Part shown: piece after piece, positions 40,728 through 61,829 of the stretch
Numbering within the stretch: the stretch's first letter is position 1
Layout of the letters: each line of letters starts with the position of its first letter
Assembly: GCA_963664295.1 (NCBI GenBank)
Contig: OY760935.1
Location: forward strand, 960,001-1,024,000
Source: Candidatus Altimarinota bacterium
GTDB lineage: Bacteria; Patescibacteriota; Gracilibacteria; CAIRYL01; GCA-016699755
DNA: 64,000 bases
Direction of reading: 5' to 3'
Notes under the pieces: generated by a model
The model's database searches: none
What the model saw: only the letters and a program-made list of their open reading frames with translations
Told to the model about the DNA's origin: nothing
Made by a program: the position numbers and the translations under genes

Positions 40728-40775
40728 GCTTATTAGCAATTTTAATTCCAAGCTTATTAGCAATTTTAATTCCAA
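40728..40775 (+). repeat. 24-bp tandem duplication
   Basis: gcttattagcaattttaattccaa twice, spanning the SLH-gene stop and the valS promoter region. Confidence 0.85.
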
Positions 40776-43700
40776 ATTAAGCCATAAATTATTTTTGTAG
40801 CTTGTGCGCGAGTAAGATTATCATTTGGTTTAAACTCTGTGTCTGAAAAACCTTTTACAATACCCAATTCTTTTGCTTTTTCTACCCACGTGATCTGCCA
40901 TGAATCCAAATCTTTAAAGTCTGATTTCTTTTTTGAGCCTTTTAGTCCCTTGATGGTTAGCAGGATTTTTAAAGCTTCAGCGCGGGTAATGTTGTTTTCT
41001 GGTCTTAATGTGCCATCATTATAACCCTTAATGGCATTTTTATTTTTTGCAAATTGTGCATAAGGCGCTAGTTCGTGGTTTGTGGGAATATCTATAAATG
41101 GATTTTGACTTACTGTTGGCAAGGCTTCTTCTCTTAGTGCATCCACGGCCATTTGCAGAAAATCACCACGAGTTATGGCTTTATTAGGATAAAACTTTTT
41201 ATTATCCTTAATAACACCAAATAATTTTAATTTTATTATATATTCTGTTGCCCACTCAGCATCTTTTAGGTCTGAAAATATTTGACTCGTTCCTCTTTTA
41301 ATTGGTGAACTGCCATTTTTTATTTCTTCATTGTCATCATGGCCATCGTTATCAGAGTCTATATTTTCTTCATCTGTACCTAAAAAGTGCTCTTCAATAT
41401 TGCTTAATCCGTCACCATCTAGGTCGTCTTCGCTTGTTGTATAGCCTTCTTCTGCGTTGTTTTCTTCGTTTTGATTATCATTACTGTTATCATTTTCGTT
41501 TTCACTGTTTCCCCCGGTTTTTTGGAGCAAGTCTTCATCAATAGAAACATCCCCAAGCTGATTTACAACAATGCTTTTGCAATAGTCCACCCCATTTTCC
41601 CCATCTTCGCCTTGACCGTTGATACAAAAAATAGTTGGATTTCTTATTTCTACTGTTTCGGAATTAATTTTTGATTTATTTTTAATGATTACGCCGTTGT
41701 TGTTGCCAAAATCAAGAGCCCTTACAGCAAATTGATTATTGTTTTTTGGATCAAAAGACAAAGATATTTTTGAATTATCAGTTAAAAATGGCAACAAATT
41801 GCCCTCTATTTTATATTCATCACCCTCTTCGTCTTCTGTTAATGGCATTTCAAATGGCGGAAAAGATAGATAAACAATGTTTTTTGTTGTTCTTATAAAA
41901 GCAGGTCCAGCAACTTCTTTGCTACCTTTTTTGAGATATATTTCGCTAAATGGTGCTATTTTTAATTTATCTATTGCAAACTCACTTTCAGGATCTCCTT
42001 CTTCAAAATTTAACTCAAGCTCCATTTGCTGTATTGCCAGATTAGAAACAAAGTTTTTAATATTTAAATTAGCAAGCACAAGCTCTTCTTGCTTTTCTTC
42101 TATAATTGCTGTTTTTTCCTCTGTTTCAAGTTTCTGAAAACTAAATTCAAGATATGCACTATCAGAAGGGGCTATTTCAAGGTCAAATCCTTCACTAATT
42201 TTTTCTTCTGGATAAGTTGCCTTAACTCGCAAAGACCCACTTTTTGCGTCTTCTGGAAGAATAGCAGTAATTTTTTTGCCACGACTATCAACATCAGTGA
42301 CTGTTAGCTCGGACTTATTTAGTGTGACAACATTGTGTTTAATATTTGTTGGAAAGTTATAGCCATAAATTTCAACTTTTTTGCCACGCACTTTGCCTTC
42401 TGGGAATAAAACTTTTTTAATCATTGGCGCAGCATAAACCGCGGTAGGATGGTCAGATCCAAAGGGCACCTCTAAAACATTGCTTTTATTTTTACCTCTT
42501 TGGACATAAATTTTAACAACTTTACTTGGTTCTTCGCTAAGCTCTACATCGGTGGAATCTTCTGGTAATAAAAATCCAGCCTCAATTTTTCCACCTGATA
42601 ATTTTACCCCGTCCAAGCCAATATTTTTGTCCAATTTAGCTCCGGAAACACTTAATTTAATGTCGCTAGTGTCGTTGCCAAAACCTGAACCGTATATTGT
42701 AAAAGGTGTGCCTTCATGGAAGCCATATTTGTCTTCTATTTTATAAATTCTTGGCTCCAAATTTTCTTCCAAATCATATTCAAATGGATTGGATTGATAT
42801 TTTTCGTAGGCTGTTATTAAAATTTCACCTTTTGTTTTAATGTCATTTTCAGTGTTAATGCGAATTTTGTTATATACTGTGCTAAATTCGTCTTGGCCAA
42901 TTTTTTTGCCACCTATTTTAATTTCAATATCGTCTTCATTTGTTGGTAAGTTGTTAGCAAAAATATCTAAGATTTTTTCCTGTCTTTTATCGCTTATATA
43001 TTCAATATTTGTTATTTCTACTGGATCTGATTTTTCGTAAACCAAAATATTGCTTTCTGTTTTATCAACCACAACTTTTATTAAAGAAAGTGGAGGTAAG
43101 GGCTTTGGTGCCTCTGCTTCTATGATAATTTTGCCATAATGGTTTTCGTAAATTTGTTCTGGTGTGACAGATTTATTATTAAATTTAACTTTTACTTTTT
43201 TTGTGTCATTAGGAATATTTTCAGCTACAATCTTAAAAAGATCCTTATTATCATCACTCACACCTTTTTCCACAGAAATATTTTGTATTATTGGAGGGAA
43301 AATTTTGGACATTTTTAATTCATTACTTTTTAAGCCATCACGAATAATTTCTATATCTTTTTGGTATTTTAAGCGCGGTAGTTTAAAACTAATTAAATTA
43401 TCAGTTATTTTATAGTTTTTAAGTCCGCTCAGGCTTATTTCGGTGTCAACAAATAGTCCGGAGAAATTTTTGCCATGGATTTCAACCTCCTTACCAGGCA
43501 AAATTCCGTCTTTTCCGTAAACAAAATAAATTTCTGGTGCTGGCACATCAACATAAAAAGGATCACTTTCCACTATTTCTTTTTTGTATTTTATTTCTAC
43601 TCTTATATTGCCGGACTTTGTGTCTTCATCAAGACGCACAGCCATATGATCAAATACAACATATTCAATGTCACTACTAACATTCAGCTCTTTGTTGTCA

Positions 43701-43933
43701 GGACCTGTGACATATACCTTAACTGTTGAGTCGTTGGCAAATTGTTCAAAATTTCTTCCTGTAATAACCATTAAAAAATTTTTTGCCTTTTTGTTTTCTT
43801 GAAAGGTGACATTGTAAATTTCCGGCTTACTTAATAACCCTTCTTCACCGTCTTCCTCTGCTTTTACATAACAGCAGGAAAAAACAAGAACAAAGCTTGT
43901 TAGTAAGGCAATAATTCTTTTTGTGTTAAACAT
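40766..43933 (-). CDS. Surface protein: IPT/TIG-like domains, TSP3-like Ca-binding repeats, C-terminal SLH
   Basis: Signal peptide; EIHGKNF, TIYGSGFG, EIYGYNF; DLDGDGLSN..DSDNDG; IKGYNDGTLRPENNITRAE, GFSDTEFKPNDNLTRAQ. Confidence 0.85.
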   Translation of the reverse strand: MFNTKRIIALLTSFVLVFSCCYVKAEEDGEEGLLSKPEIYNVTFQENKKAKNFLMVITGRNFEQFANDSTVKVYVTGPDNKELNVSSDIEYVVFDHMAVRLDEDTKSGNIRVEIKYKKEIVESDPFYVDVPAPEIYFVYGKDGILPGKEVEIHGKNFSGLFVDTEISLSGLKNYKITDNLISFKLPRLKYQKDIEIIRDGLKSNELKMSKIFPPIIQNISVEKGVSDDNKDLFKIVAENIPNDTKKVKVKFNNKSVTPEQIYENHYGKIIIEAEAPKPLPPLSLIKVVVDKTESNILVYEKSDPVEITNIEYISDKRQEKILDIFANNLPTNEDDIEIKIGGKKIGQDEFSTVYNKIRINTENDIKTKGEILITAYEKYQSNPFEYDLEENLEPRIYKIEDKYGFHEGTPFTIYGSGFGNDTSDIKLSVSGAKLDKNIGLDGVKLSGGKIEAGFLLPEDSTDVELSEEPSKVVKIYVQRGKNKSNVLEVPFGSDHPTAVYAAPMIKKVLFPEGKVRGKKVEIYGYNFPTNIKHNVVTLNKSELTVTDVDSRGKKITAILPEDAKSGSLRVKATYPEEKISEGFDLEIAPSDSAYLEFSFQKLETEEKTAIIEEKQEELVLANLNIKNFVSNLAIQQMELELNFEEGDPESEFAIDKLKIAPFSEIYLKKGSKEVAGPAFIRTTKNIVYLSFPPFEMPLTEDEEGDEYKIEGNLLPFLTDNSKISLSFDPKNNNQFAVRALDFGNNNGVIIKNKSKINSETVEIRNPTIFCINGQGEDGENGVDYCKSIVVNQLGDVSIDEDLLQKTGGNSENENDNSNDNQNEENNAEEGYTTSEDDLDGDGLSNIEEHFLGTDEENIDSDNDGHDDNEEIKNGSSPIKRGTSQIFSDLKDAEWATEYIIKLKLFGVIKDNKKFYPNKAITRGDFLQMAVDALREEALPTVSQNPFIDIPTNHELAPYAQFAKNKNAIKGYNDGTLRPENNITRAEALKILLTIKGLKGSKKKSDFKDLDSWQITWVEKAKELGIVKGFSDTEFKPNDNLTRAQATKIIYGLIWN

Positions 43934-44007
43934 ATTTTTTAAATATATCAAGATGTTTATAACAAATTATTGTCTATTTTGCACGAAAAATAAACCTTTA
44001 ATGGAAA

Positions 44008-46286: not shown

Positions 46287-47708
46287 CTAGCTTAATAGTT
46301 TTTTTAGGATTTCATTTACTGCTTTTGGGTTTGCTTGACCCTTGCTTTTTTGCATAACTTTGCCGACTAAGGCTCCCAAAGCTCGATCTTTACCGCCTTT
46401 ATAGTCTTCTGCTATTTGAGCATTTTCACTGATGACTTCTTGGCAGAATTTTTCAATTTCTCCTTGATCAGAGATTTGTACTAAGCCTTTTTCTTCAATG
46501 TATTTTTCAGGATCTAAATTATCACCAGCAATTGTTGGAAAAATTTCCTTAGCAATTTTATTTGATATTTCTCCAGCTTCTACTAAAGCAATAAGTTTAC
46601 CTAAATTTTCCGCAGAAAGTTGGCAATTTGGATTTTCTTTTAATAAAGCCAGATAGTCGCCAATAATCCAGTTTGCTGTTTTTTGTGGGCTTTTTGTAAT
46701 TTTTACAGTTTCTTCAAAAAAATCAGCTAATTGTTTTTCGCTGGTTAAAACCACTGCTTGAGCAAACGGCAAAGCGTGTTCTTCTATAAAACGCAGAGTT
46801 TTTGTTGCTGGTAATTCTGGTAATTCTTTTTTTATTGTTTCCACTTCTTGGTCTGTGGTTTCGATTGGCGGTAGGTCTGGCTCAGGAAAGTAACGATAAT
46901 CTGCGCTTTCTTCTTTTGTTCTTTGGCTTATGCTTTTTTCTTTGTCTGCATCCCAGCCTCTTGTTTCTTGAATTATTTTTTCACCATTTTCTAGTGCCTT
47001 TTTTTGTCTTTTTATTTCATATTCCATTGCTTTTTTTACATTGGCAAAAGAATTCATGTTTTTTATTTCCACCTTTGTGCCAAACTCTTTTGCACCTTTT
47101 TTACGAATTGAAATATTAGCATCACATCTCATCATTCCTTTTTCCATGTCTGCATCAGAAGTGCCTAAATAACGCATTATTTTTTGTAGTTCTTTTAAAA
47201 ACTCAAAAACTTCATCTGGTGAACGAAAATCAGGCTCAGTCACTATTTCCAAAAGAGGAGAGCCGGCTCTATTAAGATCAACAAGTGAAGAATGAGCGCC
47301 TTCATGCATCAATTTGCCAGCGTCATTTTCCAGATGAGCCCTGTTGATACGAAAAGTTTTTTTCTTTTTTTCAATAAGCACATCAACTTCACCTTTTTCT
47401 GCTACAGGTTCGTCAAATTGAGAAATTTGAAAGCCGGAAGGCAAGTCTGGATAAAAATAACTTTTGCGATCAAATTTTGAATATGGAAGAAGTTTACATT
47501 TTAAAGCTAATGCGGTTTTTTGTGCCATTTTTAATGCACTTTGGTTTAATACTGGCAGTGTGCCAGGAAAACCGCTACAAACCGGGCATATTAAAGTGTT
47601 TGCCTCTTTGTTAAAAGTATCATTTGAGCAATTACAAAAAAGCTTGGTTTTGCTTTTTAGTCTAACGTGGATTTCTAGTCCTCCTACCATTTCGTAAGTA
47701 TTTTCCAT
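46287..47708 (-). CDS. gatB: Asp/Glu-tRNA amidotransferase subunit B
   Basis: GLEIHV, FDRKSYFYPDLP, RCDANIS, YRYFPEPDL. Confidence 0.97.
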   Translation of the reverse strand: MENTYEMVGGLEIHVRLKSKTKLFCNCSNDTFNKEANTLICPVCSGFPGTLPVLNQSALKMAQKTALALKCKLLPYSKFDRKSYFYPDLPSGFQISQFDEPVAEKGEVDVLIEKKKKTFRINRAHLENDAGKLMHEGAHSSLVDLNRAGSPLLEIVTEPDFRSPDEVFEFLKELQKIMRYLGTSDADMEKGMMRCDANISIRKKGAKEFGTKVEIKNMNSFANVKKAMEYEIKRQKKALENGEKIIQETRGWDADKEKSISQRTKEESADYRYFPEPDLPPIETTDQEVETIKKELPELPATKTLRFIEEHALPFAQAVVLTSEKQLADFFEETVKITKSPQKTANWIIGDYLALLKENPNCQLSAENLGKLIALVEAGEISNKIAKEIFPTIAGDNLDPEKYIEEKGLVQISDQGEIEKFCQEVISENAQIAEDYKGGKDRALGALVGKVMQKSKGQANPKAVNEILKKLLS

Positions 47709-47770
47709 AAAAATAATCCTAAAAAATAACGATACAATTTTTGCACAAAACTATTTTTGTAGCAAAATCT

Positions 47771-48880
47771 TTATTGTTCCATAAGACTTTTTATTTCTGC
47801 GGTAATTGCTTTTTTGAAATTTTCTTCTGAAAATTGTTCAGCATGGGCACTTATTTTTTTGTAATCAAAGTTTTTTTCAATTTCAAAAAAATAAGTCATG
47901 GCATTTAATAGCGAGTCTTCGTTTTGTTCATCAAAAAATACACCTGTTTTTTCAGGAACTACAGACTCTTGCAACCCTGCAGAATTAAAAGCAATAACTG
48001 GCTTTCCGGACGCCATTGCTTCAACAGGAGTAATGCCAAAATCTTCTATCCCCGGAAAAATAAAACCACGACAATTTTGTATGTATTCGGTGACAACAGA
48101 GTCACTTTTTCTTCCTAAAAATTCAATATTTTTTCCAGCAATGTCTTTTAGATAATCTAAGTCATCGCCTGCTCCAATAATAATTAGTTTGTGCTTAGGA
48201 ATTCTATTAAAAGCTTTTATGGCAATGTCTATTTTTTTGTATGGTTGGAGAGCAGAAACTATTAAAAAATAGCCTTCATTTGTTTTTGTGGGTGTAAATC
48301 TTTTTGTGTTTACAGGAGGAAAAATTACATTAGCATCTTTGCGCCAAAATTTATCTATCCTTCTTTGTACTGTTTTTGAGTTAGCGATAATTTTTTCTGC
48401 CCTTGCTGATGCGACAAAATCCCACATTCTTAATTTATGAGCATAATTATAAATCATTGCTTTTTTTAGCCTACCAAATATGCTTTTTTTTGCTTGTTGA
48501 TCTGCTACTTGATGATAATAGTCCCAAACATAACGCATGGGAGAGTGGCAATAACAAAGGTGTTTTGTGTCTGTGTTGGTTAAAATTCCATGCGCAAAAG
48601 CACTAGACGAAGAAATTACTAAGTCGTAATCATTAAAATTAAAACTCTCTATTGCTTTTGGCATTTTTGTGCGCAAAAAAGAGAGAGGAACACCAAACTT
48701 ATAGCTTTCATTTATTTTGGCTGTTTTAACTTTTTCTTTTGGAAAATCCTGTCCGCACTTTTTTTCATCATAAAGCAGAGTGTATATTGGGGCTTTTGGG
48801 AACATTTCACTAAAAATTTTGGCCACTCTTTCAGCGCCACCTAGTTTAATCAAAAGCTCATGTACAATTGCTATTTTCAT
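47771..48880 (-). CDS. Glycosyltransferase family 4
   Basis: GGAERV, YCHSPMRYVW, EDFGITPVEAMASGKPV. Confidence 0.93.
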   Translation of the reverse strand: MKIAIVHELLIKLGGAERVAKIFSEMFPKAPIYTLLYDEKKCGQDFPKEKVKTAKINESYKFGVPLSFLRTKMPKAIESFNFNDYDLVISSSSAFAHGILTNTDTKHLCYCHSPMRYVWDYYHQVADQQAKKSIFGRLKKAMIYNYAHKLRMWDFVASARAEKIIANSKTVQRRIDKFWRKDANVIFPPVNTKRFTPTKTNEGYFLIVSALQPYKKIDIAIKAFNRIPKHKLIIIGAGDDLDYLKDIAGKNIEFLGRKSDSVVTEYIQNCRGFIFPGIEDFGITPVEAMASGKPVIAFNSAGLQESVVPEKTGVFFDEQNEDSLLNAMTYFFEIEKNFDYKKISAHAEQFSEENFKKAITAEIKSLMEQ

Positions 48881-48993
48881 GGACAGTTATAGGTCTTTAA
48901 ATTGTGTCATAAAAACAAAAAAACCAAAAGAATAAAATTTACTTGACAAATATAAAAAAAAAGTAAAAAATAACAATCCTTTAGTATAAGGAC

Positions 48994-51900
48994 ATGAAAA
49001 ATACAGCTAATAAACGACCTGTTGATAGTTGGGAATCAGCTGGTACCCAAAAAAAACAGGAAAATTTGCGCTCTATTGAGGGTGGTATTAGTTCAGAAAT
49101 GGCAACTGCTGAAATAACCGTTGAAAGAGAAAGAGCAAAAACATCATTAGGTGTTGAAAGACAGCTTGCTGTTTTGCCTAGTCTTGTTGAGGATAAGACG
49201 GCGTCATTAACTGATCAGCAAAAAAAATTGGCTCAAAGATATTGTTTTGTGAGTAATAAGGCTCAAGAAAGTGATGAAAAATTAGAACAAGCAGAGGCTC
49301 GACTTTTAGAAGCAGAGCAAAAATTAACAAACAATAGTTTGCCTGCGAAATATCAAAAACAGGTAAAAGCTGAATTAGAAAACGCACAAAGAGCTTATGA
49401 AAAAGCAAAAAAAGCACAAGAAAAAGATAGCGAGAGATTACAAAAATTATTAAACCAAAATGGTTTTACAACATTAGTAAGTGATCTTGATTTAGATAAC
49501 CCAAAAAATAAGCAAGCAATTGCAGGAGAAGTTAATAGGAGTAATGTTCATAAAATTAAAGCAAAAGAGGGCGTATTGTCTGTTGCAATGGGTAAATTAA
49601 GCTTAGCAACATTAACACCGCTTAATGCAGGTGAGATAGCACACGCTATTCGTTATTGCGTACCAAGAGACAAAAGGTCTCGTATGTTAAATAATGTTTA
49701 TTTATATAACTCAAGAGCACTTGCTGTTTGTGAGCTACATGAAGAAATACATGAACTTGATAAAACAATAATTCCTCTTCAAAAAGCAATGGAAGAAGTT
49801 GGGGTTAATGACCCAAAATATGCTGAATATGAAGATCGTTTGGTAAAAGCAAATAAAAAATCAGAAGTGCTCAATGAAAGGCTTCTTAAGTTATTAAAAA
49901 AAGGCGATCGTTTGCACGGTGCTATTTTTTCTGCACTTAAAAAAGTAGGCGTAGAAATTGAGCAAAAAGAAGAAAGCGAGGCTAGCATCAAAGCTAGCCA
50001 ACAAGGAATATTGAATTCATTTAAAGGCCTAGAAACAAAATTGAAAGCAGGAAATGTTTCTGCAAAAAAAATGGAAGCAGACTTGCAACCTATAATGACT
50101 CATTTGTTGTTGTTGCGCGGTGTTACACAAAACGCGAAAGACGGCAAGTTGAACCTAAAAGCAAAAGAACAAAAAGCTTTTGAAATACTTGGTGATAAGT
50201 TGCCTATAATTGAAGATGCGCTTAATAGCATTCTTGATACACTTGAAGAATCGGAACAAGCGCAAAAAACAAAAAAAGGATTTCTTTCGAAAGTTAAAGG
50301 TTTTTTGCGTAAACCTAAAGCAAAAAAAGTGGCAAAAGTGGCAATGTTAACTATGGCTACTCTTTCTGTTAATAGTGGCATCATCACTGATGCGGTATCT
50401 GATTTTTTTAGTGAATTAAACGACTTGGACTTAGGCGATAGTGATTTTGCAAAAGCTTTGCAAAATGCTTTTGCAGGTTTGGCAGATGGTTTAGACAATA
50501 TTGGCGACTCCGCACTTGCTTCAGAAAGTACTACCTTGAGTAGTGGCGTAAAAGCTGAACAAATTAAAGAAGGTGATACGCTGGGGCAAATTGCTGACAA
50601 AATGAGTGTAGATAATTGGCAGAATTTGCAAGTTAGTGAGGACGGAGGTCAAACATGGACTAGTGCTGAAAAAATAAATGAATATGCTATTCAGCCAGGT
50701 TGGTTAGTGGCTACTGATGGCGCTCAGCAAAGTGCGCCAATAATAAGTAATGATTACCAGACCGAAACTGTTAAAAAAGGTGATTACCTTTTTAAGATGT
50801 TAGATAGAATGCCAGGGGCTAATTCTTTAGATGACTTAGAAATTAGCATGAATGGCGGGGTTAGCTGGACAAGATATGGTGATTTTAATAATCCTAATTA
50901 CTTAGAACCAGGCTGGCAAGTAAGGACAGCAACGCAAAACATTTCAACTCAAACAGCTAGCTTTACAGAGACGCACATTGATCCTCCTCAAAACACAGAA
51001 CAAATAGAGGTAGTTGAAAATAGTGGTGAAATTAAATTAAGAGCATCAGCGTCAGTAAAAGAAGCAAACTTGCCACAAGCAAGACCTCAAGCAAAAGAAA
51101 TTATTAGAGCAGATATTGGCACAGCAACAAAAGTAGATTCTGCAACAATTATTGTACCAGGCGAAAATGACGATATACCAGGTCAAATGGAAAGAAGATT
51201 GGATCCTGTAAACATGCCACAAACAGAAAGAACATTTTTTAATGGTAATGTTTTAGTTGGCGGTGGGGTTAGTTATTTTAATGGACAAGTAGGCTCTCAT
51301 GGCGAGGCCTATGCCGGCGGTGATCATTTTGCTATTGGCGCTGAAGCAGGTTATGCAAGTGATAATGCCTATGCAAGCCCTAGCGCTGGTTATTTTTCAG
51401 ATAATTTTGATTTAGCAGTAAAAGCCATGTTTGCTAAAGGCAAATTAAAATCAGCTTTAAGTTTGCCAAATGGTGATCATGTATTTGAAACTGAACACAC
51501 AAAAACAGGTGTTGGGTCTCATTTAGGAGTAAACCTTGGTTCAGGACCAGTTAAGAGAGCAGAAGTTACGCTTGGTTATGAAAAAACATCAAGTGAAGAT
51601 GCTGGAAGTGCATCTTTTAGGGCTGATAATGGAGATTTGTTTAAATATGATGTAAAAGCAGAAGGTGCAACTGAAAAGTTTGGCAAAGTTAATCTTATTA
51701 GCAACCCCTTTCAGCTTGGCGGAGGTTGGACAGCAAATTCTAATGTTGGAGTTTTGCATGAAAGCTTAAACTTTGATGAGCCTACAGGATATAAATTAAC
51801 AGATAATGGTGAAGATTTTACAACTCCTGTTGTAGGAGCTTCTGTTGAAAGTAGTGGAAAAACCCAGTGGAAGTTTGCAGGAGAAATGGGTGCCAATTAT

Positions 51901-53097
51901 TATGAATTATCAGCCGGAGTGCGAGCTAAAGGTTGGCAAGCAGGTGTACAGACCAGACACACAGATATTCAAGACAGCATTAAGGCTAACTTGGGGATTA
52001 ATCTTACTGAAAAAGCTCAACTTAATATTGAAGGTGGAGCAACAAATATAACAGACGATATGGTTATGGAGCCTGATAATTATTATGGTCAAATTGGCGT
52101 AAGCATTCCTTTGGGTGGCTCTAAAGAAAAGTCAGTAAAACCAGTTGTAGCCTCAGCGATAGACAGCTTAAGACAAACAGTTTTTACTCACTTAGGACAT
52201 ATTGATCCAAAGCCAAAAGCGACTATGGCTATTAAAAAAACAGAAAAAGCAAATGAGGGTCCAGGGGTAATGATTATTGGTGCAAACAGAACGGTTCCAG
52301 GAAAAGCAGAAGAGTACATTGCTTCAGCATATGATTATGAGGGAGACAAGATTGTAAGTTATGATTTTAAAATTGTTAGCTCTACAGGTTTTGATGGTGG
52401 CAATATCGCTTATTGGCAACATTTTGTAGGTGAGCCACACAAAGTGAGTCTTAAATTCTCAACTCCTGACTCAGGAAATGGTAGTGCTACATTGCAATGT
52501 GTTGTCACTGATGAATATGGTAATTCAACAACAGAAACACTTTTAATTACAATTTCAGAAGGACAAAATCCAAGAAATCCTAGTAGCAACCCAAATGTTA
52601 ATCCTAAAGACGACACAGACCCAGGAAACCCTGGTAGTGACCCAAATGTTACTCCAAATGATCCAAGCAACACAGGTGATCCTAGTATTCCACCAGTAAC
52701 TCCTGGAGATGGACAAGACACAGAAAATCCTAGCACTCCACCAGTAACTCCTGGAGATGGACAAGACACAGAAAATCCTAGCACTCCACCAGTAGGCCCT
52801 GGAGATGGACAAGACACAGAAAATCCTAGCACTCCACCAGTAGGCCCTGGAGATGGACAAGACACAGAAAATCCTAGCACTCCACCAGTAACTCCTGGAG
52901 ATGGACAAGACACAGAAAATCCTAGCACTCCACCAGTAACTCCTGGAGATGGACAAGATTCAGGTGATCCTAGCACTCCACCAGTAACTCCTGGAGATGG
53001 ACAAGACACAGAAAATCCTAGCACTCCACCAGTAGGCCCTGGAGATCCAAACGATCCAAATCAACCAACTACACCACCATTTACACCTTTTGAATAA
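48994..53097 (+). CDS. 1367-aa protein: coiled coil, hydrophobic segment, two LysM-like domains, putative beta-barrel, Ig-like domain, Pro/Thr repeats
   Basis: IKEGDTLGQIA and VKKGDYLFKM; alternating G/aromatic strands ending YYGQIGVSIPLGG; VTDEYGNSTT Ig motif. Confidence 0.7.
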   Translation: MKNTANKRPVDSWESAGTQKKQENLRSIEGGISSEMATAEITVERERAKTSLGVERQLAVLPSLVEDKTASLTDQQKKLAQRYCFVSNKAQESDEKLEQAEARLLEAEQKLTNNSLPAKYQKQVKAELENAQRAYEKAKKAQEKDSERLQKLLNQNGFTTLVSDLDLDNPKNKQAIAGEVNRSNVHKIKAKEGVLSVAMGKLSLATLTPLNAGEIAHAIRYCVPRDKRSRMLNNVYLYNSRALAVCELHEEIHELDKTIIPLQKAMEEVGVNDPKYAEYEDRLVKANKKSEVLNERLLKLLKKGDRLHGAIFSALKKVGVEIEQKEESEASIKASQQGILNSFKGLETKLKAGNVSAKKMEADLQPIMTHLLLLRGVTQNAKDGKLNLKAKEQKAFEILGDKLPIIEDALNSILDTLEESEQAQKTKKGFLSKVKGFLRKPKAKKVAKVAMLTMATLSVNSGIITDAVSDFFSELNDLDLGDSDFAKALQNAFAGLADGLDNIGDSALASESTTLSSGVKAEQIKEGDTLGQIADKMSVDNWQNLQVSEDGGQTWTSAEKINEYAIQPGWLVATDGAQQSAPIISNDYQTETVKKGDYLFKMLDRMPGANSLDDLEISMNGGVSWTRYGDFNNPNYLEPGWQVRTATQNISTQTASFTETHIDPPQNTEQIEVVENSGEIKLRASASVKEANLPQARPQAKEIIRADIGTATKVDSATIIVPGENDDIPGQMERRLDPVNMPQTERTFFNGNVLVGGGVSYFNGQVGSHGEAYAGGDHFAIGAEAGYASDNAYASPSAGYFSDNFDLAVKAMFAKGKLKSALSLPNGDHVFETEHTKTGVGSHLGVNLGSGPVKRAEVTLGYEKTSSEDAGSASFRADNGDLFKYDVKAEGATEKFGKVNLISNPFQLGGGWTANSNVGVLHESLNFDEPTGYKLTDNGEDFTTPVVGASVESSGKTQWKFAGEMGANYYELSAGVRAKGWQAGVQTRHTDIQDSIKANLGINLTEKAQLNIEGGATNITDDMVMEPDNYYGQIGVSIPLGGSKEKSVKPVVASAIDSLRQTVFTHLGHIDPKPKATMAIKKTEKANEGPGVMIIGANRTVPGKAEEYIASAYDYEGDKIVSYDFKIVSSTGFDGGNIAYWQHFVGEPHKVSLKFSTPDSGNGSATLQCVVTDEYGNSTTETLLITISEGQNPRNPSSNPNVNPKDDTDPGNPGSDPNVTPNDPSNTGDPSIPPVTPGDGQDTENPSTPPVTPGDGQDTENPSTPPVGPGDGQDTENPSTPPVGPGDGQDTENPSTPPVTPGDGQDTENPSTPPVTPGDGQDSGDPSTPPVTPGDGQDTENPSTPPVGPGDPNDPNQPTTPPFTPFE
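52681..53046 (+). repeat. 48-bp coding tandem repeat (7 full copies + partial; PSTPPVTPGDGQDTEN)
   Basis: Units start at 52681, 52729, 52777, 52825, 52873, 52921, 52969 and 53017. Confidence 0.93.
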
Positions 53098-53114: not shown

Positions 53115-53143
53115 TTGACAATAACTGAAAAATTACAGAAAAT
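53115..53143 (+). promoter_or_regulatory. Promoter TTGACA-17-GAAAAT
   Basis: Perfect -35, 17-bp spacer, upstream of 53200. Confidence 0.6.
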
Positions 53144-59150: not shown

Positions 59151-61829
59151 TTATTCACTAACAATAATAGTGACAGAAATTTGACCAACTTCATTGCCAT
59201 AAATACCAACACCAAGATTTTGCCAATTTTCTTCTAGTAAAATATTATCACTTTCTTGGTTATTAAGATTAATTTTTATTTCAGAAAAAGAGCTTATTAA
59301 AGAGCTAAATTGTTCAACTTTAAAAATTAAGGCACTGGATTTTGTTTGTATGCCAGCATTTTCCAGCAAGCTCTGTAAAGAGTCACCATCTGATGAGCTA
59401 AAATCAAAAAAATCAGAGTCGCTCATTTTTTTTGACCAACTTTGAGCAATGCTCTGCAGGCTTACATTAGGTATTAAGGGGTTATTGCGAATATCATTTA
59501 CAGTTTTTAAAATTTGATCTCTATAAGAAGCCAAATTGTTGTTATCAAACGGTTCTTCGGAAAAAAGTTCAACAACAATAATTTCCCCGCTTTCTCTTTT
59601 TGCTAAGCCAATGCCAACTTCTTGCCAGTTTTCATTAAGAATGTTGCGTCTGTGAATAGGACTACGCATTAAGCCATTATGAGCAAGGCTAAGGTTTATG
59701 TCCATGGCAATATTTTCAAAAACACCGGTTTTTACTGCATGTTCAACACGATAATCATTTGCGTCTTTGCCATCAGGGTCTGTATGGGCAAAATAATTTC
59801 TTTCTTGCATGTCACTTGCTCTGAATTGAGCTAAGGCATTTAAATTATCATTAAGCTCAACTTTGGTCAGGCCAGCCTTTGCTCGGGAAGAGTTAACCAT
59901 AGATAATAATATTCTTCGATCTGCGCTAAGATTTATGTTTTCAAGAGGATCTTGTGGTTCAGACACACGATAATCTGGTAATAGTGGCACAAATCCTTTT
60001 TGTACAACAGGTGCGTTAATAATTGCAAATCCACCAGTGTCATTGATTTCAATAATATAAGTTCCTACTTCTGTTGGTGCGTAATTAAAAACAAAATCAT
60101 TACCATCAATACTCAGGGGTACGTCAATAATTTTTTCACTAGGCGTTATAATTGTTGCATTTTCTTTGAGGTTTACAGGGCTTGTTCCAGATATTTTTAA
60201 GTTTTGATTTTGAACATAATAAGGAGGCAGGTTGAGGTTGTTTATTTGTTCTTCAACTATTCTTTCATGCTCAATTACAGCATAAAAATCAACACTTACT
60301 GCATCAGAAAATGTTTTATTTTGGCTATTAGAAAGGCTGTTTTCAAGGGGTGCGCCAGCAATTTCTACTGTCATAAAGCCTTCCTGAAAATTCTCAAAAA
60401 TTTCAGTTGGTGTTTGAAATGAGTTTTGATTATTAACAAAAATCTCTATTGTTTCATTTTCTTGTGTAAATCTGAGCCTAAAGAGCTGGTTCCAATCATC
60501 TTCCCAAGAAAAAATTGCTTTGCCATTAATATTTTTAATAACAAAATTAGCAGGTTTACTTTGTGATTGTTCCTCAAAGTTTGGTTCACAAATAGGATCA
60601 TAAACAGTGATAGAGCCTATTTTGCTTTGACCGCTTGTGCCAGGGATCATTGCAATTTCGTGTTCACCAGCTTCATCACTAAAAGTAATTTGCACTTCAA
60701 AACTATTGTTATACACAAGGCCTGAATATGTTTTTTTATCAATAAAAACCGTCACTTCATCAGCTACAACACCCGACCCTAGTTCACCTTTTATGGTATA
60801 AATTTCATTTTTTCTAAATATTTTTGGAATATCATTATCCAAAATTAAGTTATTAAAAAAATCTTTTTCCAATAAATCATTTTCTGTATTTATTTGGCAA
60901 ATTTCTTTGGTTGGTATGCCTGCTGGTGTATCTTCGGGCAATTCTTTGAGTCGCACATTAGCAAGACCACGAGAAAGAGGATAAATTGCCTCAAAAGCTA
61001 TTTCTGAGAGATCAATAATTCTTCCTTCTGCATAGGGCCCTCTATCATTTATTTTAACTATAACAGACTTATTATTGTCTTGATTTGTGACGAGTATTTT
61101 TGTGCCAAAAGGAAAGGTTTGATGAGCAGCGGTATATTTATCTTGATCAAAAACTTCTCCATTGGCTGTATTACGACCTTCGAAAAAATCGGCTAAATAA
61201 CTGGCGCCACCTTCGTCCGGATGATCATTTTCTTTCCATTTTTCTAGCCTATAAAATATTTCCGCAAGCTCTCCTCTGGTCATATCCTTTGCAGGTTGGG
61301 CGTAGTTTGGGTTGTCAAAAAAATTATTATTTTTTGCAAAAGCAAAATAAGACGCAAACCATTCATCAGCACCAATATCTAAATAAGGACTTTTTTCCGG
61401 TTGTTCAAGCTGAATTCCGTTTACAAGAATTAGCATTTTTAATGCTTCAGCACGATTTACTGTGCGGGTTGGCTCAAAATATCCCTCAGCAGTTCCCTTG
61501 ATAACGCCAAGGTTTTTAGCCTTAAAAACATAAGGGCTAAACCACTCATCCCTTGGTACATCTGGAAAAGGTTTGTCCGCAGGAATTCCTTCTGCTTCAA
61601 GTCCAGAGCCAAGAATTAAAATTTTTAATGCCTCAGCACGATTTACTTTTTGATCTGGCTTAAAACTGCCATCAGAAAAGCCGTTCAGCACTCCTTGATC
61701 ACTTAAATAAGTAATTGCAGTAAAGTTTGTGTGCTCTGGGCTAACATCGGTAAAAAATTTAGCACTAACTTGAGCAGGCAAAGTTAGTGAAAATATTATT
61801 CCAAAAATAATTATAATTTTTTTCTTCAT
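59151..61829 (-). CDS. SLH + RlpA lytic transglycosylase + two CAP domains
   Basis: SLH GFSDGSFKPDQKVNRAE; RlpA TANGEVFD..TAAH..INDRGPY..IIDLS; CAP YFAH..ENIA..SPIHRRNIL..VGIG. Confidence 0.88.
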   Translation of the reverse strand: MKKKIIIIFGIIFSLTLPAQVSAKFFTDVSPEHTNFTAITYLSDQGVLNGFSDGSFKPDQKVNRAEALKILILGSGLEAEGIPADKPFPDVPRDEWFSPYVFKAKNLGVIKGTAEGYFEPTRTVNRAEALKMLILVNGIQLEQPEKSPYLDIGADEWFASYFAFAKNNNFFDNPNYAQPAKDMTRGELAEIFYRLEKWKENDHPDEGGASYLADFFEGRNTANGEVFDQDKYTAAHQTFPFGTKILVTNQDNNKSVIVKINDRGPYAEGRIIDLSEIAFEAIYPLSRGLANVRLKELPEDTPAGIPTKEICQINTENDLLEKDFFNNLILDNDIPKIFRKNEIYTIKGELGSGVVADEVTVFIDKKTYSGLVYNNSFEVQITFSDEAGEHEIAMIPGTSGQSKIGSITVYDPICEPNFEEQSQSKPANFVIKNINGKAIFSWEDDWNQLFRLRFTQENETIEIFVNNQNSFQTPTEIFENFQEGFMTVEIAGAPLENSLSNSQNKTFSDAVSVDFYAVIEHERIVEEQINNLNLPPYYVQNQNLKISGTSPVNLKENATIITPSEKIIDVPLSIDGNDFVFNYAPTEVGTYIIEINDTGGFAIINAPVVQKGFVPLLPDYRVSEPQDPLENINLSADRRILLSMVNSSRAKAGLTKVELNDNLNALAQFRASDMQERNYFAHTDPDGKDANDYRVEHAVKTGVFENIAMDINLSLAHNGLMRSPIHRRNILNENWQEVGIGLAKRESGEIIVVELFSEEPFDNNNLASYRDQILKTVNDIRNNPLIPNVSLQSIAQSWSKKMSDSDFFDFSSSDGDSLQSLLENAGIQTKSSALIFKVEQFSSLISSFSEIKINLNNQESDNILLEENWQNLGVGIYGNEVGQISVTIIVSE

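Follow-up and report, generated by a model that had tools for sequence, protein, structure and literature searches.

How does a bacterium that appears to have a single membrane come to encode a protein laid out around an outer-membrane-type β-barrel? The question is raised by one gene in a 64,000-nucleotide stretch of DNA, hereafter the window, from a Candidatus Altimarinota bacterium (assembly GCA_963664295.1, contig OY760935.1, positions 960,001 to 1,024,000). The gene occupies positions 48994..53097 of the window on the plus strand, is supported by the listing of open reading frames (ORFs), by codon use and by an independent contig, and encodes a protein of 1367 residues, termed P0002. Its parts follow in the order leader, basic-then-hydrophobic segment, LysM-like repeats, barrel, helix and linker, immunoglobulin (Ig)-like domain and stalk. 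A first-pass annotation, made from the DNA letters, had seen here an intimin-like protein in a presumed monoderm Candidate Phyla Radiation (CPR) cell; all the motifs it quoted are found in the translation, and its domains were recovered, while the helix and linker between barrel and Ig-like domain (residues 1051-1087) were missing from its list.

The barrel region (51241..52113, plus strand) is predicted from ESMFold2 contacts, hydropathy, a barrel score and Atlas leads to form a transmembrane β-barrel of about 16 strands, with tight turns on one side and three long hairpin extensions opposite them. For ESMFold2, residues 741-1043 and 1044-1192, two parts of one chain, were submitted as two chains. 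The barrel-tail score was 0.84 (runs of 0.84, 0.88 and 0.83) against 0.01 for the best of three controls. Of 157 solved complexes, 116 attain the mark that it passes, as do 2 of 215 mismatched pairs; these numbers apply only approximately to a prediction with an alignment of our own, and the high score may stem from resemblance to solved intimin structures. Contact agreement was at least 85%, and the predicted local distance difference test (pLDDT) values lay at 80-81 in the tail and 82-87 in the barrel. Residues 1051-1087 contact alternate residues of many strands (even-numbered ones in 806-822, odd-numbered ones in 831-843, 857-865 and 923-929, and residues 997 and 999), and the chain is therefore predicted to lie inside the lumen, as a plug helix (1051-1068) and a lumen linker (1069-1087) encoded at 52144..52254 on the plus strand; residues 1074-1080 are predicted to pair antiparallel with a loop strand at 886-892. 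The first-pass annotation had taken these roughly 300 residues for a barrel, and the prediction agrees with it, giving a barrel with a lumen-threading linker and neither a β-sandwich nor a solenoid. The annotation's further idea of a conduit does not survive as well: with helix and linker of the same protein predicted to fill the lumen, a conduit role is unlikely.

By reading, we counted 16 amphipathic strands in P0002 and likewise in its homolog P0003, described below; the ESMFold2 output was used without strand count or coordinates, the strand limits were set by us, and the register comes from model contacts for 12 strands (for some, one or two contacts) and from inspection by eye for the other four. 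Over all 16 strands, the outer face of P0002 comprises 83 residues with a mean hydropathy of +1.72 and two charged residues, compared with -1.41 for the inner face; on the 12 strands, the faces free of linker contact comprise 63 residues with a mean of +1.78 and again two charged residues. The corresponding values for P0003 are +1.25 (outer) and -1.27 (inner), so that an uncharged, aromatic-edged outer belt is retained between homologs at about 25% identity. With a home-made barrel score, residues 750-1040 rank first among 879 ORFs of at least 150 codons and above 13 of 13 known barrel positives, and none of 500 shuffles reaches their score; the weights were revised once, and before the revision the region ranked fifth and the best shuffle had 13 strands against 14. 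Searches of Pfam (E≤10), NCBIfam and PDB sequences gave no match to the barrel region. Atlas features served as leads: the barrel alone fell with clusters of porins and outer membrane proteins (OMPs) at 0.89-0.93 with low recognition, and with the tail added, clusters of IAT_beta came out on top (0.89; 186 of 256 shared; all of the 10 best named hits). On these models, we consider it very probable that the region is a true membrane-type barrel.

Searching 1.84 billion representative proteins with the barrel using phmmer, we found one other protein, P0003 (1116 residues, E 6.5e-7). It is colinear with P0002 at 23-28% identity, with leader, basic-then-hydrophobic segment, one LysM-like repeat, barrel, helix, linker and Ig-like domain. 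Word-index searches returned P0002 itself or P0003; these searches are insensitive, and one of them missed P0003. A genome of the same order (G015) holds a homolog (L003:7546-10389, G015:C14) with the leader, the signal-like segment and about three LysM-like repeats, whose downstream part differs and shows no barrel before the contig end cuts the gene; this suggests a modular family with swappable cargo. A leader-profile match in a further genome (G305, E 7e-5) was dropped for an internal stop, and three Asp-box proteins from contig scans were rejected as chance; the other contig scans for homologs gave no match, and a DNA search of the order gave chance matches of 23-60 bp alone. In a second study, a seawater sample yielded contigs on which the gene recurs at about 95% identity with its frame intact. 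Compared with these contigs, which are of low depth and come from one sample, the gene has 33 changed codons, of which 17 are synonymous, and the ratio of nonsynonymous to synonymous polymorphism (pN/pS) is about 0.26 (Fisher p 1e-4); on the outer face, each of the seven substitutions leads to a non-polar residue. The substitution pattern points to purifying selection, which, together with the colinear homolog, argues against a relic. The barrel protein is rare but old.

The producer, which is very small and probably depends on a host, belongs by its sequences to the class Gracilibacteria: the best 80 of 283 GatB matches, where named, are Gracilibacteria, Peregrinibacteria, Peribacteria, Abawacabacteria, Altimarinota or Patescibacteria. 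Its genome is a single contig of 1,215,430 bases, 100% complete and 0.12% contaminated, and has no match to uL30, the loss of which we take to be a CPR trait. Whole-genome family searches found no Omp85 (BamA), POTRA, TamB, LptD, LpxC or secretin; they were positive in the expected controls (2-8 of 14 genomes), and a strongly divergent insertase could escape them. The presumption of a monoderm cell thus agrees with the gene content. Genes for Lgt, LspA, SecD and signal peptidase are present, and the idea that lipobox proteins need processing by a host is ruled out by the cell's own Lgt and LspA. There is also a VirB4/TraG-like ATPase in a 667-aa frame (L125, G000:C1:634369-635292). A pilus ATPase gene is present in the absence of a secretin match, which points to there being no continuous outer membrane. 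Patescibacteria are described as monoderm (PMC11665869, PMC12102498). Among 200 other genomes of the class, one matched Omp85 (G118), on a 2.6-kb BamA-Skp contig in a 6%-contaminated bin; judging its neighbours by eye, we set this match (L128, G118:C69) aside as probable contamination. As a separate observation, public Gracilibacteria bins include probable contaminating diderm contigs, with BamA-Skp or a Bacteroidota-like OMP (L128, G118:C69; L133, G175:C27; L131, G075:C17).

Barrel genes of another kind occur in the genus g50 of the same class. The family OMP_b-brl matched three of 200 other class genomes (G175, G075 and G115), of which the first two are probable contamination by their neighbours (G075 judged by eye). 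The contig of the third (L132:6727-8478, G115:C29) carries genes for HU, thioredoxin, RNase H, SecD and a nucleotidyltransferase that match those of the P0002 genome, and a tandem pair of barrel-like proteins of about 200 residues with normal signal peptides and a terminal Phe. Their OMP_b-brl match is below the Pfam cut-off (E 6.8e-5), so these are candidate barrels known from sequence. They adjoin secD in three of five genomes of the genus (L132, L136, L137) and in 0 of 36 others, no Omp85 was found in the five g50 genomes (89-95% complete), and by hhalign they are unrelated to the barrel of P0002.

What precedes the barrel bears on how it might leave the cell. The charged leader (residues 1-427; 48994..50274, plus strand) is predicted by AlphaFold2 (AF2), and supported by conservation in P0003, to be helical with two α-hairpins (67-165 and 217-319), in keeping with the charged N terminus lacking a signal peptide that had been described at first pass. 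The AF2 model of residues 1-666 has a mean pLDDT of 47, a low confidence; Foldseek found no match to it at E≤0.001, and the VIA matches to the leader were generic coiled-coil or helical hairpins (Z up to 10.8). An N-terminal signal peptide is absent from P0002, and its one signal-like segment is at residues 428-464 (50275..50385, plus strand), where a basic cluster (428-448, with nine Lys/Arg and no Asp/Glu) is directly followed by the most hydrophobic stretch of the protein (449-464). The basic-then-hydrophobic pattern is common to all three homologs (P0002, P0003 and that of G015), with best 19-residue Kyte-Doolittle means of 1.45, 1.79 and 1.42, respectively. The segment may be an internal signal peptide or signal anchor, cleaved or uncleaved. 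It is marginal as a transmembrane helix and resembles a signal peptide, so that the earlier description holds for the motif but its function as a permanent membrane tether is at best putative. We also screened by script for other proteins with long leaders and internal signals; the screen, which missed P0002, gave three of 194, none of them convincing. Two large proteins of the genome (L117:1987-7413, minus strand; L120:1065-4421, plus strand) have a charged leader of about 90 and 47 residues, respectively, before a signal-peptide-like or lipobox segment.

The two LysM-like repeats lie on the plus strand at 50551..50718 (Pfam LysM E 0.007, in an AF2 block with pLDDT of 53-73) and 50761..50931 (E 0.18; 32% identity to the first), each with an Asp-box-like hairpin insert. 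The two can be aligned to one another and to the homolog, but both are below the Pfam cut-off. Foldseek rows for LysM in this region are weak (4uz2, E 0.22), and a profile of the repeats matched none of 250 other genomes. A spacer of 100 residues separates them from the barrel. Beyond the linker follows a single Ig-like passenger domain (52261..52563, plus strand), sub-threshold in Pfam (Big_9 E 0.05, Big_13 E 0.14) but with the motifs D-x-EGDKI and VTD-x-x-GN conserved in P0003. The Pro/Thr/Asp-rich repeat tail noticed at first pass is borne out as a Pro/Thr/Asp/Gly stalk (52564..53094, plus strand) with a 16-residue tandem repeat, encoded by a 48-bp repeat at 52679-53046 with 7.7 copies and 93% matches. 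The stalk is absent from P0003, and one contig of the seawater strain has a short, different segment in place of the 48-bp repeat.

A barrel whose outer belt faces lipid requires a membrane and, in known cells, also the β-barrel assembly machinery (BAM). We tentatively favour, at somewhat less than an even chance, a reading in which P0002 is exported to the periplasm of a diderm host and assembled there by the host's BAM, because all domains then stay in their usual compartments and no new membrane has to be invented. The protein would leave the producer through Sec by way of its internal signal, for which the genome has its own SecD and signal peptidase genes, or through VirB4-type delivery with the leader as carrier; it would be released from the leader and enter the periplasm of an attached Gram-negative host, whose BAM would insert the barrel into the outer membrane. 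There the LysM repeats would likely grip the host peptidoglycan, and the Ig-like domain and stalk would be threaded through the barrel to the host surface as a docking or marking site made by the parasite. Gram-negative bacteria serve as hosts to related Patescibacteria (PMC11393006, PMC13059738). A number of observations weigh against this reading. The producer has no known host, and nothing indicates access to a host periplasm. AF2 with a two-sequence alignment of the barrel gave an unusable model (pLDDT 27.5). The last barrel strand of P0002, GVSIPL, is without the aromatics of the β-signal, whereas that of P0003, GFTYAF, matches the pattern GXX-aromatic-X-aromatic (PMC13067283). There is no clean cleavage site after the hydrophobic segment of P0002, and the passenger, made up of one Ig-like domain and a stalk, shows nothing recognisable as a binding tip. 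No autotransporter extension is known to come near the 427 residues of the leader that precedes the signal. Finally, the barrel profile matched none of 400 other class genomes, and the full protein is known from two organisms and one strain. We are slightly more doubtful of the wider proposal that Gracilibacteria make barrels for the outer membrane of a Gram-negative host by way of its BAM, of which P0002 and the small barrels of g50 would be two independent cases.

The protein may instead serve the producer's own envelope, with the leader in the cytoplasm, a signal anchor in the membrane, LysM on the cell's own peptidoglycan, the barrel, folded without BAM, in shed vesicles or in an outer layer of lipid that has escaped recognition, and the Ig-like domain and stalk at the surface. 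Such an arrangement would account for the order of the domains without any passage of the protein from one cell to another, the locus lies among envelope genes, barrel genes recur in BamA-less Gracilibacteria (g50), and vesicles have been reported around a patescibacterial epibiont (PMC13059738). We nevertheless consider it unlikely: the genome has no lipopolysaccharide (LPS), Lpt, Bam, Tam or secretin match and a pilus ATPase without secretin, its 879 ORFs contain, by the barrel score, a single clear barrel besides one partial candidate, and the gene is rare in a class whose phylum is described as monoderm (PMC11665869, PMC12102498). The first-pass annotation had itself proposed that the protein, anchored in the CPR membrane, pushes its barrel into the host outer membrane from outside. 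The barrel would then sit upside down; its Ig-like domain and stalk would reach into the periplasm of the host and so rivet one cell to the other. This would require the producer's own Sec pathway alone, and the basic-then-hydrophobic segment in three of three homologs and the 100-residue spacer between LysM and barrel would suit it; purified barrels, moreover, can insert loops-first into lipid vesicles. Against this stand the marginal hydrophobicity of the would-be tether in all three homologs and the three long charged hairpins that would have to cross; BAM acts from the periplasm, so that passage through the LPS leaflet would be uncatalysed, and the plugged lumen offers no conduit. We find the inverted insertion improbable. 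A low probability also falls to a barrel outside any bilayer, which would be either a captured barrel now serving at the surface as a module that is soluble or coated with lipid, or else a relic in decay. The missing sequence link to any barrel family, the failure of AF2, the many small outer-face residues (Ala/Gly) and the G015 homolog, with leader and LysM-like repeats but no barrel before the contig end, all fit this reading. However, the uncharged, aromatic-edged belt has been kept at about 25% identity, codon use matches the genome and the frame is intact in two studies, and the colinear homolog and purifying selection argue against a relic. We stress that every reading except this last breaks a rule, by a barrel installed in the host outer membrane or by an unrecognised lipid layer with BAM-free folding.

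Several features of the locus bear on whether the gene belongs to this genome. In run X1, possibly the source sample, a contig corresponds to 47500-52718 with no differences and links the gene to gatB and a glycosyltransferase; it rules out misassembly up to 52718, whereas no listed contig spans the 48-bp repeat. The G+C content at third codon positions (GC3) is 0.208, near the genome mean of 0.223 +/- 0.041 (486 ORFs), and a recent import is therefore ruled out. The gene stands alone between a divergent glycosyltransferase gene and one for a DUF11/LTD surface protein, and envelope genes nearby encode a glycosyltransferase, a MurJ-like flippase and SLH proteins. A candidate sigma-70-like promoter, TTGACA-17-AAAAAT, lies at 48943..48971 on the plus strand and is supported by its position alone, such sites not being enriched (11 in the region, 10.7 expected). 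With a TTGACA site of the next gene's own at 53115, the P0002 gene is probably monocistronic. The SLH proteins at 40766-43951 and 59151-61829 have, between them, IPT/TIG repeats and RlpA-like DPBB plus CAP domains, and are ordinary for the group.

Elsewhere in the genome, a 1522-residue orphan (L111:5843-10408, minus strand; G000:C1:823839-828407) has no signal peptide and, at about residues 630-740, a stretch that looks like seven amphipathic strands of the outer-membrane type; it has no Pfam match and no homolog among 60 relatives. Large orphan ORFs without signal peptides (L111-L115; G000:C1 823839, 459853, 329493, 382221 and 1138062) begin, judged by eye, with a similar motif, F-x(1,2)-E-x-[RK]-x-hydrophobic, and one of them has a peptidoglycan-binding domain (E 2e-6); their sequences suggest non-Sec export of effector-like proteins.

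Among known systems, P0002 is closest in layout to the inverse autotransporters (type Ve: intimin, invasin, YchO and FdeC; IAT_beta, PF11924), with which it shares, by prediction, the order LysM-like repeats, barrel, plug helix, lumen linker and Ig-like domain. The likeness extends, in the model, to the small sheet predicted between linker and extracellular loop; plug, lumen linker and small extracellular sheet are features of the intimin structure (PMC13078405). Inverse autotransporters are defined by 12 strands and the IAT_beta sequence, and the assembly of intimin requires BAM (PMC4943183). P0002, on the other hand, has about 16 strands; it has a 427-residue helical leader and an internal signal in place of an N-terminal signal peptide, and one Ig-like domain with a Pro/Thr/Asp stalk and no lectin tip. 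Inverse autotransporters are built by the producer's BAM and TAM, whereas the producer of P0002 has no match to BAM, TAM or outer-membrane genes. A search with the IAT_beta hidden Markov model (HMM), as the first-pass annotation had advised, gave no Pfam match at E≤10, hhalign against a nine-sequence IAT profile gave P 0.2%, the same as for shuffles, and PF11924 matched none of 301 class genomes, that of P0002 included. The type Ve likeness thus holds for domain order and for the predicted plug and linker, and not for IAT_beta or strand number. To judge from sequence and model, P0002 would work like an inverse autotransporter in a variant layout; membership of the family is unsupported, because strand number, IAT_beta sequence, N-terminal signal peptide and a BAM of the producer all differ. 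It suggests that the inverse-autotransporter layout may exist on a wider, 16-stranded barrel that the family HMMs miss.

With 16-stranded porins and unclassified OMP barrels (Porin_4, Porin_7, OMP_b-brl), P0002 shares the strand count, by reading, and the tight turns opposite long loops, but it has no Pfam porin match, its barrel is internal with 327 residues after it, where a porin closes with a C-terminal Phe, and its lumen is predicted to hold its own linker. The OmpM/SlpA envelope tethers of diderm Terrabacteria similarly join a wall-binding domain to a barrel, using SLH and a trimeric stalk in cells with BamA, where P0002 has LysM and a C-terminal passenger (PMC10628300). Among the papers listed by our full-text searching, which was not exhaustive, none deals with inverse autotransporters or barrels of Patescibacteria; look-ups of the word 'barrel' gave no match in PMC10633639, PMC11452946, PMC11665869 and PMC13059738, and supplementary structure tables, above all those of PMC10633639, might hold such annotations. 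P0002 offers a concrete test protein for the question of how CPR bacteria attach to Gram-negative hosts and draw on them; a barrel installed in a host would, if true, be categorically new. The nearest functional analogy would be Tir, the partner of intimin (PMC4943183), by which attaching-effacing E. coli puts its own docking protein into the membrane of its host. Tir is delivered by type III secretion. In the arrangement proposed for P0002, it is the barrel itself that would be inserted, into a bacterial host, and no type III secretion would be involved.

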